64,000 bases of DNA from a phage. Below the pieces are notes generated by a model. It was not told the origin of the DNA, did no database searches, and was given only the letters and a program-made list of their open reading frames with translations. Location: assembly GCA_020773975.1 (NCBI GenBank), contig GCA_020773975.1_3638.1; one strand, given 5' to 3'. Each line of letters opens with the position of its first letter. Within the stretch, counting starts at the first letter, position 1. Positions 1 through 5,440 of this stretch are shown piece by piece. The position numbers and the translations under genes are program-made.

Positions 1-9
1 ATCCTAGAT

Positions 10-261
10 TTGAAAACGAATCTGATTGCAATGATTCCTGAAGCTCATCAGGTTCTTAGGGATTTGATGAAGAATGTGAATACAAAAGACAATATCAGAG
101 AAAATATCGCTCGTTATGTTATTGAGAAAGGTGAGCAGATGCTTTCTGATTACTTTGATGAGGAAAACGAAGAGTTACTCGAAAAAGATAACTCAGAAAA
201 AGCTCCTATTAAGGCAGCTAAACCATTCTCGACGGATATTGTTCAATTCAAACAAGGTTAA
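10..261 (+). CDS. hypothetical small acidic protein (83 aa)
   Basis: ORF track; ends just before the tRNA array; no recognisable motif. Confidence 0.35.
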   Translation: MKTNLIAMIPEAHQVLRDLMKNVNTKDNIRENIARYVIEKGEQMLSDYFDEENEELLEKDNSEKAPIKAAKPFSTDIVQFKQG

Positions 262-352
262 TGTGTCGTTAGACCGTAGGGGTAGCTGGGGAGACTGTAA
301 ATCTCCTGTCTCGAAAGGGACTCGGGTAGTTCGACTCTATCACGGCACACCA
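260..352 (+). tRNA. tRNA-Tyr (anticodon GTA), class II with long variable arm
   Basis: Hand fold: acceptor GTGTCGT/ACGGCAC, anticodon stem GGAGA/TCTCC with loop CTGTAAA, T-arm GGTAG-TTCGACT-CTATC, encoded CCA. Confidence 0.6.
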
Positions 353-420
353 ACTGAATCTGTACTGGCTTTGATGTGTGACGATACCCTCCAATCGTGG
401 TTGTTGGGCCAGTACAGTTT

Positions 421-496
421 GGGAGTGTAGATCAGTTAGTAGATCGCTCGACCGATAATCGAGAGGACGTAGGGGCAGAGCCTACCACTCCCACCA
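421..496 (+). tRNA. tRNA-like, anticodon GAT (Ile) with atypical C33 and non-canonical T-loop
   Basis: Hand fold: acceptor GGGAGTG/CACTCCC, D-stem GATC/GATC, anticodon stem CTCGA/TCGAG loop CCGATAA, T-stem GTAGG/CCTAC but T-loop GGCAGAG, encoded CCA. Confidence 0.4.
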
Positions 497-501
497 AATA
501 T

Positions 502-576
502 GCATCCATAGTTTAATTGGGAAAACTACAGCCTTCCAAGCTGAAGTCGAGGGTTCGATACCCTCTGGATGCTCCA
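502..576 (+). tRNA. tRNA-Gly (anticodon TCC)
   Basis: Hand fold: acceptor GCATCCA/TGGATGC, anticodon arm CAGCCTTCCAAGCTGA as in bacterial tRNA-Gly(UCC), T-loop GGTTCGATACC, encoded CCA. Confidence 0.75.
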
Positions 577-687
577 GTTAAAAGATGTCAATGAAATCCG
601 CTTGGGTCAACTGAAGACCGTAACAAATTCCATGGTGTTGTGTTTGCGGTCCAACACCAGACATCTTCTATCTATGTACAGGCTTGA

Positions 688-1251
688 GTGCGTATGAGAT
701 ACTTGAAATATTTATCGTGGATTCTGTTAGCACCTCTTGACCCAATTATGTCGGTTCTATGTGTTATTCTGGCTCCTTTTGTTGTTCCGTTCTATAATGA
801 GAAGACAGGGCATCTACCTTATATTTTCAGGTGGATGGAAACATATGATAATCCTATAGATGGTGACAGAGGACACATAGAGAGATGGGAAGAAGTCCGT
901 AAAATAGGAAGTTTTGGTGTTTACCTACAACGAGTTGCTTGGTTGTGGAGAAATAAAGCCTACAATTTTTCCTATCACGTACTTGGACGTGAAATCACAT
1001 CTGTGACAAAGTGGAAAGGAAACATCCATGTAAGCTCTGATGTGGAGGATAATCAACAAGGCTATTTGTTGATGTGGAATGACAATGCGTGGGGTGTATT
1101 CGCGTTTGTCCCGTCTTTTAGATTGTTTGGAAAACAATTTTACTGGCGAATTTATGTCGGTTGGAAACTGAAGAGTGTGGTTCCTGAAGACAGAGCTTTT
1201 TCAAGAGAGAGAGTGATGTTGGCATTTTTCATAAGTCCTTTCCGAAAATAG
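688..1251 (+). CDS. hypothetical Trp-rich protein with hydrophobic N-terminus (187 aa)
   Basis: ORF track; embedded in the tRNA array; N-terminal hydrophobic stretch; no recognisable catalytic motif. Confidence 0.4.
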   Translation: MRMRYLKYLSWILLAPLDPIMSVLCVILAPFVVPFYNEKTGHLPYIFRWMETYDNPIDGDRGHIERWEEVRKIGSFGVYLQRVAWLWRNKAYNFSYHVLGREITSVTKWKGNIHVSSDVEDNQQGYLLMWNDNAWGVFAFVPSFRLFGKQFYWRIYVGWKLKSVVPEDRAFSRERVMLAFFISPFRK

Positions 1252-1257
1252 TTTTTA

Positions 1258-1337
1258 ATGAGAGTAGCGTAACTTCACTGGGTGAAGGCTGGCCTCCAAA
1301 ACCAGTGACTAAGAGGTTCGATTCCTCACTCTCGTGC
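1258..1337 (+). tRNA. tRNA-Trp (anticodon CCA), atypical D-arm, CCA not encoded
   Basis: Hand fold: acceptor ATGAGAG/CTCTCGT, anticodon loop CTCCAAA matching bacterial tRNA-Trp, T-loop TTCGATT; D region is long and forms a CTTCAC/GTGAAG hairpin. Confidence 0.5.
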
Positions 1338-1340
1338 AAA

Positions 1341-1416
1341 AGGGGATTAGCATAGTGGCCTAATGCAACGGGCTTTGACCCCGTGATCGGTTGTTCGAAT
1401 CAACCATCCCCTGCCA
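1341..1416 (+). tRNA. tRNA-Gln (anticodon TTG)
   Basis: Hand fold: acceptor AGGGGAT/ATCCCCT, anticodon stem ACGGG/CCCGT loop CTTTGAC, T-arm GGTTGTTCGAATCAACC, encoded CCA. Confidence 0.7.
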
Positions 1417-1425
1417 AGTTAAAAC

Positions 1426-1515
1426 GGAGAAGCAAATCGATTGGCGACGAAAACACATTGGAAATGTGCTGACTGGTAAAACGGATTGAGAGTTCGATTC
1501 TCTCCTTCTCCGCCA
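1426..1515 (+). tRNA. tRNA-Ser (anticodon GGA), class II
   Basis: Hand fold: acceptor GGAGAAG/CTTCTCC, anticodon loop TTGGAAA, long variable arm, T-arm GAGAG-TTCGATT-CTCTC, G73, encoded CCA. Confidence 0.6.
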
Positions 1516-1536
1516 GTTTTTAATTACTAAGGTATT

Positions 1537-1630
1537 GGAAGATTAACCCTAATTTGGTAAGGGGTCTCCCTGCTGAGGAGATAGTAACCCAGAAATGGGT
1601 GTGACAGTTCGATTCTGTCAGCCTCCTCCA
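1537..1630 (+). tRNA. tRNA-Ser-like (anticodon GCT), class II, acceptor stem imperfect
   Basis: Hand fold: anticodon stem TCTCC/GGAGA loop CTGCTGA, long variable arm, T-arm GACAG-TTCGATT-CTGTC plus CCA; 5' acceptor pairs with two mismatches, so 5' boundary uncertain. Confidence 0.4.
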
Positions 1631-1857
1631 AGTTATCTTTAATGTAGCTTGTTATTCTTACTTTAGCAGAGTAAATCTTCGGCAAGTGGCGGTAACCACT
1701 TTACCGATACCCCAGAGCAGTCCGCTCTTTACTGGCGTAAGTCAAACACTCATGATGGTCATGTAATCGTAATCTATCATTAGTGTGCCCTCCCTAGAGG
1801 GCTGTTGCGTATAGCTAATTATGTGCGAGTAATTAGCTATTTTAAAGATAATTTAAA

Positions 1858-1934
1858 GGATCTGTAGCCAAATGGTTTAAGGCACTCGACTTTTAATCGA
1901 GGGATTGTTAGTTCGAATCTAACCAGATCCACCA
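1858..1934 (+). tRNA. tRNA-Lys (anticodon TTT)
   Basis: Hand fold: acceptor GGATCTG/CAGATCC, anticodon stem CTCGA/TCGAG loop CTTTTAA, T-loop GTTCGAATC, encoded CCA. Confidence 0.75.
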
Positions 1935-1943
1935 AAATATTCT

Positions 1944-2034
1944 GGTTCTTTGACCGAGTGGTCGATGGTGACGGCCTGTTAAGCCGTTGGGAGGAATCTC
2001 CCCACCGAAGGTTCGAATCCTTCAGGAACCGCCA
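1944..2034 (+). tRNA. class II tRNA (Ser/Tyr-like body, long variable arm, G73) with anticodon GTT
   Basis: Hand fold: acceptor GGTTCTT/AGGAACC, Ser-like D-arm ACCGAGTGGTCGATGGT, perfect anticodon stem ACGGC/GCCGT with loop CTGTTAA, variable hairpin GGGAGG..CTCCC, T-arm GAAGGTTCGAATCCTTC, encoded CCA. Confidence 0.55.
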
Positions 2035-2120
2035 ATTCTTGACTTAATCAAGTCACAGATATCACCTAGCCAGCGATACCAGTTAGTAGATTCTGGGACA
2101 ATTAAAATCTACATCTCTCT

Positions 2121-2198
2121 CTGTCCGTAGCGCAGCTTGGGTAGCGCGGGTCACTTGGGATGATCAGGTCGTTGGTTCAAATCCAACCGGACAGACCA
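2121..2198 (+). tRNA. tRNA-Pro (anticodon TGG)
   Basis: Hand fold: acceptor CTGTCCG/CGGACAG, D-arm GCGCAGCTTGGGTAGCGC, anticodon loop CTTGGGA, T-arm GTTGG-TTCAAAT-CCAAC, encoded CCA. Confidence 0.7.
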
Positions 2199-2240
2199 AC
2201 AAACATATACATATCAAAGCAGAAATGTACAGAGGATACC

Positions 2241-2432
2241 ATGTTAACAGTTAAAGTCGTATCTCCAAATGATGAACAAATTTTTTGTGGCAAAATTGTT
2301 GGGTATTGTGCTCATCAAAAGTCTATAGCTATTTCAGGTATTGACCAAAAAGTGTTTTTGTCTGAGGATCAGACAGCTTATGTTATCAATGCCAATGGGA
2401 AAACTATTTCTGTGTATCGTGGAAAACCATAA
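2241..2432 (+). CDS. hypothetical small protein (about 63 aa)
   Basis: ORF track 2160..2432 trimmed to the internal ATG (MLTVKVVSPN) so it no longer overlaps tRNA-Pro. Confidence 0.35.
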   Translation: MLTVKVVSPNDEQIFCGKIVGYCAHQKSIAISGIDQKVFLSEDQTAYVINANGKTISVYRGKP

Positions 2433-2446
2433 CTGTTGATATAAAT

Positions 2447-2523
2447 GGGCGATTGATGGAATTGGTATACATGTCAGGCTTAGAACCTGAATTTTGGGGG
2501 TTCGAGTCCCTCATCGCCTACCA
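2447..2523 (+). tRNA. class I tRNA with anticodon TAG (would read CUA/Leu) and A73
   Basis: Hand fold: acceptor GGGCGAT/ATCGCCT, anticodon stem TCAGG/CCTGA loop CTTAGAA, short variable loop, T-arm GGGGGTTCGAGTCCCTC, encoded CCA. Confidence 0.5.
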
Positions 2524-2528
2524 ATCAT

Positions 2529-2604
2529 GTGACGGTAACTCAGTTGGTAGAGTGCCTTGCTGAAGACTAGGTGGTCACAGGTTCGAACCCTGTCCGTCAC
2601 ACCA
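2529..2604 (+). tRNA. tRNA-Phe (anticodon GAA)
   Basis: Hand fold: acceptor GTGACGG/CCGTCAC, D-arm CTCAGTTGGTAGAG, anticodon loop CTGAAGA, T-arm CACAGGTTCGAACCCTGT, encoded CCA. Confidence 0.65.
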
Positions 2605-2610
2605 AATTAT

Positions 2611-2689
2611 TGCAGAGTGGTGGAAATGGATTTACCATGTTAGGTTCATACCCTGAAGATTGCAGGTTCGACTCCTGCCTCTGCATCCA
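2611..2689 (+). tRNA. tRNA-Met (anticodon CAT; Met or lysidine-Ile)
   Basis: Hand fold: acceptor TGCAGAG/CTCTGCA, anticodon stem TTAGG/CCTGA loop TTCATAC, T-arm GCAGG-TTCGACT-CCTGC, encoded CCA. Confidence 0.6.
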
Positions 2690-2707
2690 AGAATAAGAGA
2701 GAGTATT

Positions 2708-3133
2708 TTGAAAATATGTGGTTGTTGTAATAAATTAAAGGATTTCTCTGAGTTTAGTAAAAAATCAGCAGCAAAAGACGGTTATGCAAGTAAATGTAAA
2801 GAGTGCCACAATAACTATGTTAGAACTAAATGGTATCCTAGGAATAAAAAGAAGCACATCTCTTCCGTAGCTAAATATAAGAAGCTAAACCCTTATAAAA
2901 TAATTTCACATAGGTATGGTATACCAGAAGATATTGTTGAAAATATAATGTCAAAAGGTGAATGCGAGATTTGTGGCTCAACAGAAAATCTTGTTTTTGA
3001 TCATATACATCTGACAAATACTGCTAGAGGATGTCTTTGTACTCTATGTAATATAATGATTGGAAGATTGGGTGATACGAACGAAGAGATTTTAGAAAAA
3101 CTCCCTAAAATTTTAGCCTATGTAAGTAAATAA
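2708..3133 (+). CDS. HNH homing endonuclease with N-terminal Cys-rich zinc-binding region
   Basis: ORF track 2660..3133 trimmed to in-frame TTG after AAGAGAGAG RBS (track start overlaps tRNA-Met); CxxC pairs and HNH signature ...NLVFDHIHLTNTARGCLCTLCN... Confidence 0.65.
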   Translation: MKICGCCNKLKDFSEFSKKSAAKDGYASKCKECHNNYVRTKWYPRNKKKHISSVAKYKKLNPYKIISHRYGIPEDIVENIMSKGECEICGSTENLVFDHIHLTNTARGCLCTLCNIMIGRLGDTNEEILEKLPKILAYVSK

Positions 3134-3139
3134 AATTTT

Positions 3140-3172
3140 GATTGGTTCGATTCCAATACTCGCAACCAGAAT
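3140..3172 (+). pseudogene. orphan tRNA 3' fragment (T-arm, acceptor 3' strand, CCA)
   Basis: TTGG-TTCGATT-CCAA followed by ACTCGCA-A-CCA; no complementary 5' acceptor strand upstream. Confidence 0.3.
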
Positions 3173-3298
3173 TAAAGTGGACACTAAGGAAGGTCGTGGC
3201 TGAGTAAACGGTAAGACACTCTCGACATGTAAAGGTTCCTTCGCCACTTTTCTCAAATAACTATAATAATAATCCAATCAATCTCCTCTCCTATGCCT

Positions 3299-3324
3299 AA
3301 CCCCGCCTCTTGCGGGGTTTTTCT
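3299..3324 (+). terminator. rho-independent terminator
   Basis: CCCCGC-CTCTT-GCGGGG hairpin followed by TTTTT. Confidence 0.6.
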
Positions 3325-3373
3325 TTATGTGCTAGTCTTTACGCATCTTGTTTTGTACTCAAGGATAGCTAAG

Positions 3374-4711
3374 ATGTTGCATGTTTTCAAAAAAGAAGAT
3401 TTTCAAAGAGAGTACGACATTTTGTGCTCTTTTATACCAAAAGGTGTTTATGATTTATTGTCGAAGCTGGATGTTAAGATAGCTGGCGGTGCAATAACCT
3501 CTTTGTTCTCTAATAGTAAAGTCAACGATCTTGATTTGTATTTCCCATCTTGGGAAAGCCTTGAGATATTCATTGCGTACATGATGGATAAAAATCTCTT
3601 AGGTGGAAAGTATGATTTAGCCGCACAGACAAACGGATGGGGAAATCAAAAAAGAACTTTTAGGTATTTTTATAACCTTGATAATGGGCAGGGTTCTCAT
3701 TTAGGTTTCACAGATCCTTTGTCAAGATGTAAAAATCTTCATTTTGAAGATGAAGATCTTCCAAACCTTACCAGAGTTGGTGTAACCGATAAGAGTGTGA
3801 TGCTGTACTTTGGGAAAGACCCTGTATTACAGTGTGTTGCTGTGGATGTGTTCAAAACAACAGAAGATATCTTTAGCAAAGTTGATTTTACAATCAACAT
3901 GGGCGCTTTTAACTTCAAGGATGGTGTGTGGGAATTTGATAGCAATTTCTTAAAACATATTGCTCAAAGGGTTTTAGTTGTAAATCATAAGACTGAATAC
4001 CCGATTATATCACTTTTGAGATCTGAAAAATATAAATCTCGTGGTTATACAATTTCGAAAAAAGAGACAATGAAACTGGCTATGACCATTGCTAGCCTTC
4101 AGATACAAAGTTGGGAATCGGCAAAGTCACATCTTAGCGGGATGTACGGAATGAAACTGTCTGATATCTTTGATGAGACAAAGCCGTTTTCACTTGATTT
4201 TTTGGTTGAGTGTCTAGACAGATTAGAATCTGGTTGCCAGCAGATAGACAAAAATGTTACCCCTGTGCAACCGTTGCCGTTTAATGATGTGTCCCAAGTT
4301 AATATGTTCAGTATTTTCCAAAGATTAAGAAAAGCAACAGGCAGGAAATACTTTACAAAACTATATGGGGTTTGTCCTGCTGAAGTTTTCTATCTTATGA
4401 TGCCAACAAAAGATACACATTATGTTGGGCTTCACAAAGAAGATATAGCAAATAATTTTCCAACTCTCAGACTTTATGTTGATGAAACGGAGGCAAGAGG
4501 AGAGTACAAAATTCTGTGTGAGAACGGAGAGATAGATGGCTATGGGTTTACAATATATCGGCCAGGTGCAGTTCTGTTAAAGGTTTCTGTAAGCGATACG
4601 TCAAAGATCCAATACGATATAGGTTATTTTAATGATTTGTGTATTTCTGAAAACAGAAAAACAACACTGAAAATTGAAAACATTATTGAGTGTGATGGGG
4701 ATATATCATGA
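3374..4711 (+). CDS. putative tRNA nucleotidyltransferase-like (CCA-adding/poly(A) polymerase family) protein
   Basis: ORF trimmed to ATG after AAGGA RBS; head motif KIAGGAITSLF...NDLDLYF aligns with GGAVRD...DxD, and SKVDFTINMGAF aligns with RRDxTINA at matching spacing. Confidence 0.5.
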   Translation: MLHVFKKEDFQREYDILCSFIPKGVYDLLSKLDVKIAGGAITSLFSNSKVNDLDLYFPSWESLEIFIAYMMDKNLLGGKYDLAAQTNGWGNQKRTFRYFYNLDNGQGSHLGFTDPLSRCKNLHFEDEDLPNLTRVGVTDKSVMLYFGKDPVLQCVAVDVFKTTEDIFSKVDFTINMGAFNFKDGVWEFDSNFLKHIAQRVLVVNHKTEYPIISLLRSEKYKSRGYTISKKETMKLAMTIASLQIQSWESAKSHLSGMYGMKLSDIFDETKPFSLDFLVECLDRLESGCQQIDKNVTPVQPLPFNDVSQVNMFSIFQRLRKATGRKYFTKLYGVCPAEVFYLMMPTKDTHYVGLHKEDIANNFPTLRLYVDETEARGEYKILCENGEIDGYGFTIYRPGAVLLKVSVSDTSKIQYDIGYFNDLCISENRKTTLKIENIIECDGDIS

Positions 4712-5109: not shown

Positions 5110-5399
5110 AAAAGTGTGTCATCATGGTTCCTTTTCTATTATTGATGTTAATAGGGTGCACTTCACCACCTGAGAGAGTTGTTCCTGTTGCAAAAGAGAT
5201 CATAATAAGCGATATCTTAGCAAGACCACCCGCTGAGGCTATGATACCACCGAAAGAACCTGAAAAATTGCCAGGTGGTCTTAGTAATGCAGATGCTATC
5301 GAGGTGATTAAGAAAAACAACATTAAGGCTGCTGAAGATCGTATGAGATTAAGAACGTTACAGCAGTATGTGAAGACAATATTTTCTTCAGATAAGTAG
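5106..5399 (+). CDS. putative o-spanin (Rz1-like), proline-rich signal-peptide protein
   Basis: Signal peptide ending LIGC then Pro-rich mature region; immediately follows the i-spanin candidate. Confidence 0.45.
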   Translation: MKKCVIMVPFLLLMLIGCTSPPERVVPVAKEIIISDILARPPAEAMIPPKEPEKLPGGLSNADAIEVIKKNNIKAAEDRMRLRTLQQYVKTIFSSDK

Positions 5400-5407
5400 T
5401 TGACAAT

Positions 5408-5440
5408 GCCCTTATTTAATGATAAGGGCTTTATTTTTAT
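5408..5440 (+). terminator. rho-independent terminator
   Basis: GCCCTTAT...ATAAGGGC hairpin followed by T-run. Confidence 0.55.

Follow-up and report, generated by a model that had tools for sequence, protein, structure and literature searches.

The best-described counterpart of the locus presented here is SegB of phage T4, a free-standing GIY-YIG homing endonuclease encoded in the T4 tRNA gene cluster (PMC2330249). Its 27-bp recognition site includes the T-arm motif GGTTCRANTCC of tRNA genes, and in crosses SegB is inherited at nearly 100%, along with the surrounding tRNA genes (PMC2330249). Association with tRNA genes is widespread among SegB homologs, which cause rearrangements at these sites (PMC13096335). 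The tRNA cluster of phage T5 also holds HNH endonucleases, according to a citation in the SegB work (PMC2330249). Phage tRNAs counter tRNA-targeting defences of the host (PMC13096335), and agents that reshuffle phage tRNAs therefore have functional consequences.

The locus analyzed here is part of a 64-kb stretch of phage DNA, hereafter the window, to which all window coordinates refer. It resembles the T4 system in several respects: a phage tRNA array harbors a free-standing nuclease gene that close relatives lack, neighboring tRNA genes are co-inherited with SegB just as a particular tRNA is linked to the gene here, and repeats drive rearrangement. It differs in the fold of the nuclease, which is of the endonuclease VII type (His-Me finger) instead of GIY-YIG, and in its position, since segB lies between intact tRNA genes whereas the endonuclease gene of the window abuts a truncated tRNA. 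Moreover, cleavage and homing by SegB have been determined experimentally, whereas here they are predicted from sequence. The likeness to the HNH-superfamily endonuclease ORFs reported among the T5 tRNA genes is one of description and not of sequence comparison. Within the literature searched, nothing on truncated tRNAs beside homing endonucleases came up.

The tRNA Array and the Orphan tRNA 3' End

ARAGORN detected 11 tRNAs at positions 263-2689 of the window. Two further tRNA-like genes at 421-493 and 1262-1333, which ARAGORN missed, were found by Rfam (53.4 bits with the tRNA and 34.4 bits with the tRNA-Sec model), so that the array holds at least 13 tRNA genes. The intact tRNA(CAU) in front of the endonuclease ORF, here called X type, has the acceptor stem TGCAGAG/CTCTGCA, a long D-loop, U as discriminator and an encoded CCA, and differs in sequence from the Y type described below. 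The features of the locus are listed in Table 1.

Table 1. Features at the end of the tRNA array of the window
Feature	Position	Strand	Basis or remark
tRNA-Phe(GAA)	2529-2604	+	ARAGORN; Rfam 66 bits
Shared mobile block, 536 bp	2605-3140	+	Segment identities with L031
X-type tRNA(CAU), intact	2611-2689	+	ARAGORN; Rfam tRNA 52.1 bits; cloverleaf fold
GGTTCGA, left direct-repeat copy	2666-2672	+	T-arm of X tRNA
Endonuclease VII-type ORF (His-Me finger, HNH-like), 141 aa	2708-3133	+	Pfam PF02945, 1.1e-11
Junction AATTTTG, 7 nt	3134-3140	+	Between ORF stop codon and stump
3' stump of Y-type tRNA(CAU), tRNA positions 49-76	3141-3168	+	Av-05 match 27/28; motif statistics
T stem of stump, ATTGG/CCAAT	3141-3145/3153-3157	+	5 bp, perfect
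GGTTCGA, right direct-repeat copy	3144-3150	+	In stump
T-loop of stump, TTCGATT	3146-3152	+	Canonical
3' acceptor strand of stump, ACTCGCA	3158-3164	+	
Discriminator A; encoded CCA	3165; 3166-3168	+	
Conserved element, 83-84 nt	3174-3257	+	After last tRNA; 11/11 loci compared
Intrinsic terminator	3299-3319	+	8-bp stem, 6 G-C pairs, T-run

The stump, which reads ATTGG-TTCGATT-CCAAT-ACTCGCA-A-CCA, consists of a T-arm, the 3' strand of the acceptor stem, the discriminator and CCA; a 5' acceptor strand, a D-arm and an anticodon arm are missing. The initial annotation had described a perfect T-arm followed by a 7-nt acceptor strand, discriminator and CCA, and this description is correct, with a T stem that in fact comprises 5 bp. 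In order to judge its significance the window was searched for the complete motif (a perfect 5-bp stem enclosing TTCRANN, the second 5-nt strand, 7 nt, any nucleotide, CCA). It occurs ten times; nine copies lie within called tRNAs and the tenth is the stump. As 200 shuffled sequences contained a mean of only 0.005 copies, the stump is not a product of chance.

Neither ARAGORN nor Rfam at E<=10 called a tRNA at the position of the stump. When the 48-nt 5' part of its intact homolog from phage Av-05 (see below) was compared with the 64 kb, only chance matches of 9-12 nt appeared, and the two TGCGAGT heptamers on the + strand (1824 and 59746) are followed by neither a D-arm nor a tRNA-like sequence. 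The absence of a matching 5' half, which had been claimed from the sequence around the stump, thus extends over the entire window, and the possibility that the stump belongs to an intact tRNA that had escaped folding is removed by the ARAGORN, Rfam and 5'-half searches. With the stump alone as query, Rfam returned solely the T-arm of the tmRNA model, tRNA hits being suppressed by clan competition. Folded alone, the stump RNA reaches -6.3 kcal/mol, which is not significant (z -1.3), and the predicted minimum-energy structure is not the T-arm. Nor was a structured RNA comprising the stump supported by folding of positions 3134-3330, which yielded nothing better than shuffles (z -0.7).

The strong terminator downstream places the stump inside the tRNA/endonuclease transcription unit. 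It is probably transcribed within the tRNA operon, without a function of its own.

The Endonuclease Gene

That the sequence upstream of the stump is an endonuclease gene was borne out by the ORF found at this position. It starts with TTG at 2708, preceded by AAGAGAGAG, and ends with TAA at 3131-3133; non-coding gaps of merely 18 nt separate it from the X tRNA and 7 nt from the stump, which thus begins 7 nt after the stop codon. The product possesses an N-terminal zinc ribbon (CxxC...CxxC) and a C-terminal nuclease motif, FDHIH...CN. Besides Endonuclease_7, the Pfam scan gave only a sub-threshold match to DUF6510, and a GIY-YIG domain was not among the matches. The term "HNH endonuclease" used in the initial annotation is hence adequate at the level of the His-Me finger superfamily; the protein has no canonical Pfam HNH domain but belongs to PF02945. 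The zinc cysteines and the motif FDH(I/V)H...CN are invariant in four homologs, and the catalytic motif is intact. The closest solved structure is that of Hpy99I (PDB 3fc3; 3.4e-7), with which both parts align and with which the protein shares the zinc ribbon and the beta-beta-alpha-metal nuclease core. As Hpy99I is a restriction enzyme and not a mobile element, this similarity bears on fold and chemistry only.

Homologs with 30-35% identity occur here and there in T7-like, cyanobacterial, mycobacterial and other phages, and this patchy spread across unrelated phages is the pattern of a mobile gene. Such endonuclease VII-type ORFs, represented by gene 13.5 of phiYeO3-12 as annotated, belong to the same Pfam family and are likewise inserted sporadically between conserved genes. 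They differ from the ORF of the window in lying outside tRNA arrays; the association with tRNAs is limited to the subclade with at least 47% identity. The product is presumed to be a free-standing homing endonuclease: it belongs to a recognized nuclease superfamily, its gene is present in some and absent from other relatives, and the block that contains it occurs in unrelated backgrounds.

Relatives without the Endonuclease Gene

The window matches phages of the genus Avunavirus (Vequintavirinae) with 95-99% identity, and none of the six matching records contains the ORF. The gene is absent from Av-05, 18-1-2, 19-1-2, 24-2-1 and TH18, in which the flanks are 95-99% identical to those of the window. 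An alignment with relatives lacking the gene had been proposed as a check of the orphan, and Escherichia phage Av-05 provided a clear result. In a blastn comparison the homology stops at 2606, just past tRNA-Phe, and resumes at G3140, the counterpart of tRNA position 48; the sequence downstream is 97.5% identical. Between the two breakpoints Av-05 carries an ORF of 76 aa without Pfam match and then an intact tRNA(CAU) at L002:3456-3531, the last 28 nt of which (L002:3504-3531) agree with the stump at 27/28 positions. The orphan thus represents positions 49-76 of a tRNA(CAU) gene of this kind, which we refer to as Y type.

The Y tRNA of Av-05 (TGCGAGT-TT-GAAGTC-TGGT-GACTTC-G-CTGGT-CTCATAA-GCCAG-TCCAG-ATTGG-TTCGATC-CCAAT-ACTCGCA-A-CCA) folds as a cloverleaf when taken alone (-27 kcal/mol, z -3.4). 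It is not annotated in the Av-05 record and was missed by ARAGORN as well as by Rfam at the gathering threshold, a failure probably explained by the D stem of 6 bp and its 4-nt loop; among the Rfam models, tRNA-Sec gave the highest score (37.4 bits). As the gathering threshold misses this tRNA and also the chimeric gene of 18-1-2 described below, Rfam was used in E-value mode and combined with folding.

Further members of the Y type, besides that of Av-05, are located at L026:555-630, L021:1111-1186, L003:1204-1279 and L036:766-843. The D stem has 6 bp and the D-loop mostly 4 nt (3 nt in Seu621, 5 nt in L036). Compensatory changes preserve the D stem, which occurs as GAAGTC/GACTTC, GAATTC/GAATTC, GAACTC/GAGTTC and GAGTTC/GAACTC.

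The last tRNA is separated from the terminator by a conserved element (AAAGTGGACACTAAGGAAGG...CCTTCGCCACTTTTCT), which makes up the flank of homology on the right-hand side; the eleven loci compared comprise three genera of Vequintavirinae and the window. Copies are located at L001:3296-3379, L003:1714-1796, L004:1532-1615, L026:701-784 and others, and in L036 the element is deleted. It lacks covariation because the predicted closing stems are invariant, and in the Rfam search of window positions 1-4000 no family matched it. The element may be a stable small RNA that ends the tRNA operon. Apart from chance matches, scans of IMG/VR with the pattern of this element and with the downstream protein recovered no phages other than Av-05 and PVP-SE1.

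Recurrence of the Block and Its Junction

Eight contexts of the endonuclease clade were compared, with amino acid identities of 47-95%; those designated L031 to L036 are assemblies from metagenomes or read archives, whose repeated tRNA sequences might in principle have been joined wrongly. In six of the eight, namely the window, L031, L033, L034, L035 and Aeromonas phage APT65, a tRNA stump follows 0-7 nt after the stop codon. These six span 50-95% amino acid identity, different phage backgrounds and different tRNAs.

L031 is a read-archive contig of 144 kb which is otherwise unrelated to the window and has a different order of tRNAs; its endonuclease is 95% identical. The block, which is made up of a 6-nt spacer, the X tRNA, a second spacer with ribosome-binding site, the endonuclease ORF and the 7-nt junction, recurs there with 96-100% identity (6/6, 79/79, 18/19, 410/426 and 7/7 identical positions for the successive segments). 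The preceding tRNAs (Phe vs Ile) are 68% identical, the stumps agree at 22/28 positions and the next 60 nt are unrelated (about 51%). In the stump of L031 (ATGGG TGCGATA CCCAT AGCCGCA A CCA) one pair of the T stem is compensated relative to the window. Unrelated flanks and a differing stump around a shared block fit a stump derived from the recipient, and the presence of the block in two backgrounds, each time with a different Y-like stump cut at the same tRNA position, is predicted by repeated insertion into diverged targets.

In L033 the endonuclease, which is 72% identical to that of the window, is encoded by an ORF (299-727) between the two halves of one Y-type tRNA. A 5' half of 38 nt (TGCGAGT...CTCATAA, 234-271) ends 27 nt before the ORF, and the stump (AGTTG-TTCGATT-CAACT-ACTCGCA-T-CCA, 729-756) starts 1 nt after its stop codon. 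The acceptor strand of the stump is complementary to the upstream half and only about positions 41-48 are missing. With both halves present, the gene sits inside a tRNA gene, between anticodon arm and T arm, and there is no room for an intron ribozyme.

In L034 (71% identity) an X-type tRNA lies upstream, as in the window and in L031, so that three contexts combine the X tRNA with the endonuclease gene; the stump starts at about position 51 and ends with CTCCGCA-A-CCA. In L035 (50%) the stop codon TAG is followed by GTATT GCGGG TTCGACT CCCGC TACCGCA A CCA. In APT65 (61%) the stop codon overlaps the stump, (AA)GTG TTCGACC CACCT ATCTTCC A CCA; its relatives LAh_6 and LAh_9 possess the complete gene, a tRNA-Ser(GCT) (L029:1188-1272), of which the stump is the 3' end. 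APT65 also lacks seven further tRNA genes which in LAh_6 are found between tRNA-Asp and tRNA-Ser.

The remaining two contexts deviate from this arrangement. In LNA4, the Seu621/KpS8 group and L036 (47-49%) a Y-type tRNA lies upstream, and only the 14-nt end of an X-type tRNA (CTCACGCATCCAAA) is left; that of Seu621 occurs unchanged at the same place in the intact X-type tRNAs which PVP-SE1 and EspYZU15 possess. L032 (74%) has no recognizable stump, the ORF being followed by 14 nt and an intact tRNA-Trp. The tRNA position of the junction varies accordingly: it is ~44 in L035, 49 in the window, L031 and L033, ~49-51 in APT65 and L034, and ~65 in LNA4 and Seu621.

Loss of the Gene in the 18-1-2 Lineage

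At the place of the block, 18-1-2, 19-1-2, 24-2-1 and TH18, which are related isolates and count as one lineage, have a single tRNA-like gene composed of the 5' part of the X tRNA and the 3' part of the stump. Its 5' part equals the X tRNA of the window up to GGTTCGA with one substitution. As the two blocks of homology overlap on these 7 nt, the gene was lost by a deletion of 478 bp between the T-loop repeats. The chimera, with two mismatches each in the acceptor stem and the T stem, yields no cloverleaf on folding and scores 25.1 bits (Rfam threshold 29), whereas the intact X tRNA reaches 52.1 bits. A gene with such mismatched stems cannot be ancestral, so that the arrangement of the window must have come earlier in this lineage; the orders from Av-05-like to window-like and from window-like to 18-1-2-like are assumed and not rooted in a phylogeny. 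The stump is still recombinogenic.

Origin of the Stump

By its sequence the stump is a pseudogene scar, i.e., the 3' 28 nt (positions 49-76) of the resident Y-type tRNA(CAU) gene. It probably marks the right-hand junction of a cassette consisting of a free-standing endonuclease VII-type homing endonuclease gene and its own X tRNA. The initial annotation had suspected here the trace of an insertion into a tRNA gene mediated by the endonuclease, or of recombination at such a gene, and both the intact gene of Av-05 and the interrupted one of L033 argue for this reading. Homology, breakpoints, the recurrence of block and junction and the loss by deletion are documented by the alignments.

By analogy with T4 SegB, the nuclease would break the endonuclease-free allele in or near the DNA for the variable-loop/T-arm region of the Y-type tRNA gene, and repair would copy the tRNA-plus-endonuclease block of a donor into the end of the tRNA array. 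If the right-hand crossover took place immediately beside the insertion, T-arm, acceptor strand and CCA of the recipient would survive as the stump. The insertion would destroy the target site, and the companion X tRNA would supply a CAU tRNA. Later, recombination between the GGTTCGA repeats deleted the gene in the 18-1-2 lineage and fused the 5' part of the X tRNA to the Y stump. That the nuclease itself made the break is our inference, as are its activity, the cleavage site and the direction of events and of transfer. Junctions at about positions 44-51 in six contexts suggest that the nuclease may recognize the T-arm motif of tRNA genes. The X tRNA would then be a companion or replacement tRNA of the cassette, compensating for the lost Y tRNA. 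The left junction lies beside tRNA-Phe in the window and beside tRNA-Ile in L031, so that the left-hand recombination is not simple homologous repair.

An alternative is a truncation unrelated to the nuclease, in which the array decays by recombination of conserved T-arm and 3'-end sequences and the gene is adjacent by chance. Such decay does occur, as the tRNA-Ser(TGA) indel in the array of the window also ends in tRNA 3' sequence, a 30-nt repeat, and the deletion in 18-1-2 needs just a 7-nt repeat. We nevertheless regard chance adjacency as unlikely, for it predicts neither a truncated tRNA 0-7 nt past the stop codon in six contexts nor the position of the gene of L033 between two halves of one tRNA.

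The stump might also have been kept because it is useful, be it as an RNA hairpin for processing or stability of the endonuclease mRNA, as a decoy against tRNA-targeting defences, or as a DNA homology arm by which the cassette recombines into any tRNA array. The window, L031, L033 and L035 have perfect T-arm stems despite a protein divergence to 50% identity, the stems of window and L031 differ by a compensated pair, and the stump belongs to the operon, ahead of its terminator; moreover, the T4 segB mRNA is reportedly cut during maturation of the adjoining tRNA (PMC2330249). Each stump, however, resembles the local target tRNA and not a conserved cassette sequence. LNA4 and Seu621 retain just 14 nt and L032 nothing, the T-loop of L031 is a degenerate TGCGATA, and by itself the stump RNA does not fold significantly. 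A retained function is therefore very unlikely in our estimation.

Split and intron-containing tRNA genes exist as a general precedent, and the stump has a complete 3' end with encoded CCA, so that half of a split, permuted or intron-containing gene rejoined at the RNA level might be considered. It is hardly conceivable here, given that the 64 kb contain no 5' half, only 18 nt and 7 nt of non-coding sequence surround the ORF, and about positions 41-48 are absent from L033. A group I intron with an endonuclease ORF was rejected: no Rfam intron family matched window positions 1-4000 at E<=10, the gaps measure 18 and 7 nt, and the 5' exon is absent. Although tRNA 3' ends are common on elements that integrate, a host tRNA 3' end copied as an attachment site has next to no probability either, since 5,426 E. 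coli genomes gave no chromosomal match and only four weak plasmid matches, the homolog of the stump is a phage tRNA (Av-05), and the relatives of the window, the Vequintavirinae, are known only as virulent phages.

Implications for Phage tRNA Repertoires

Understood as the junction of a homing-endonuclease cassette, the scar is a recognizable and fairly ordinary instance of the already known traffic of homing endonucleases in phage tRNA clusters. What goes beyond this traffic is the companion tRNA and an apparently reciprocal replacement of X and Y tRNAs. In one lineage (window, L031, L034) the cassette brings an X-type tRNA and the stumps left behind are of the Y type; in the other (LNA4, Seu621, L036) the tRNA is of the Y type and the stumps are of the X type. 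X-only and Y-only genomes both occur at the terminal position within Seunavirus as well as within Mydovirus. Tentatively, and with considerable doubt, two sister endonuclease lineages could thus drive a reciprocal turnover of the X and Y tRNA(CAU) at the end of the array in Vequintavirinae. If so, each nuclease would be directed against the tRNA type missing from its own cassette, and the cassette would act as a gene drive that swaps in a resistant allele; later loss of the gene by recombination at tRNA 3' sequences would account for the coexistence of X-only and Y-only genomes in these genera and for chimeric tRNAs.

The locus offers a sequence-level example of how selfish nuclease genes may remodel phage tRNA repertoires by truncating one tRNA and importing another, while the later departure of the nuclease gene by T-loop recombination yields a chimeric tRNA. 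For annotation, a T-arm with acceptor strand and CCA right after an endonuclease VII-type ORF can serve as a diagnostic scar and should not be taken for a missed tRNA. The uncharacterized nuclease clade provides candidates for homing, with the Av-05 tRNA as predicted sensitive and the X tRNA as predicted resistant allele. Homing, if demonstrated, would carry the SegB paradigm to a second nuclease fold.

Further Observations in the Arrays Compared

A second indel in the array of the window is likewise bounded by tRNA 3' sequence. A tRNA-Ser(TGA) that is present in 18-1-2 and Av-05 is absent from the window (1601-1630 vs L001:2037-2066 and 2197-2226), and the junction lies inside the 30-nt repeat, T-arm plus acceptor end, that is common to tRNA-Ser(GCT) and tRNA-Ser(TGA). 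Moreover, 18-1-2 and Av-05 contain ~240 bp of extra sequence that is absent from the window (~673-680 vs L001:875-1115). It overlaps a small annotated ORF and is located just upstream of an ORF encoding a DUF7338 protein (window 688-1251).

In L031 a protein similar to IS605 OrfB/TnpB is encoded at 5362-5426, ~2.4 kb downstream of the tRNA array. In the locus of L033, for which ARAGORN calls no tRNAs at all, the stump is directly followed by a tRNA-like sequence with CAU anticodon (~763-836) and the odd T-loop ATCGAAA. In Seu621 (L003:1294-1755) and LNA4 (L021:1201-~1665) the endonuclease ORF has lost its stop codon and reads through the 14-nt tRNA remnant; in Seu621 the reading frame continues into the conserved downstream element, and the C-terminal extension in the KpS8/LNA4 lineage amounts to ~15-20 aa.

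Some genomes of Seunavirus encode a tRNA-like mini-RNA of ~57 nt (GGGGTATCC...ACCCCACCA) with closing stem and CCA, which follows the last tRNA(CAU) and precedes the conserved element (L026 ~635-694 in SalP219, L021 ~1621-1680 in LNA4). In NDO71 (L024 ~960-1125) and K23PH08C2 (L027 ~553-645) tRNA-Phe is separated from the terminal tRNA(CAU) by additional sequence in which no tRNA was called. It contains a T-arm-like hairpin, GCAGG TTCAAGT/TTCAACT CCTGT, that may be another tRNA relic or an unusual tRNA.
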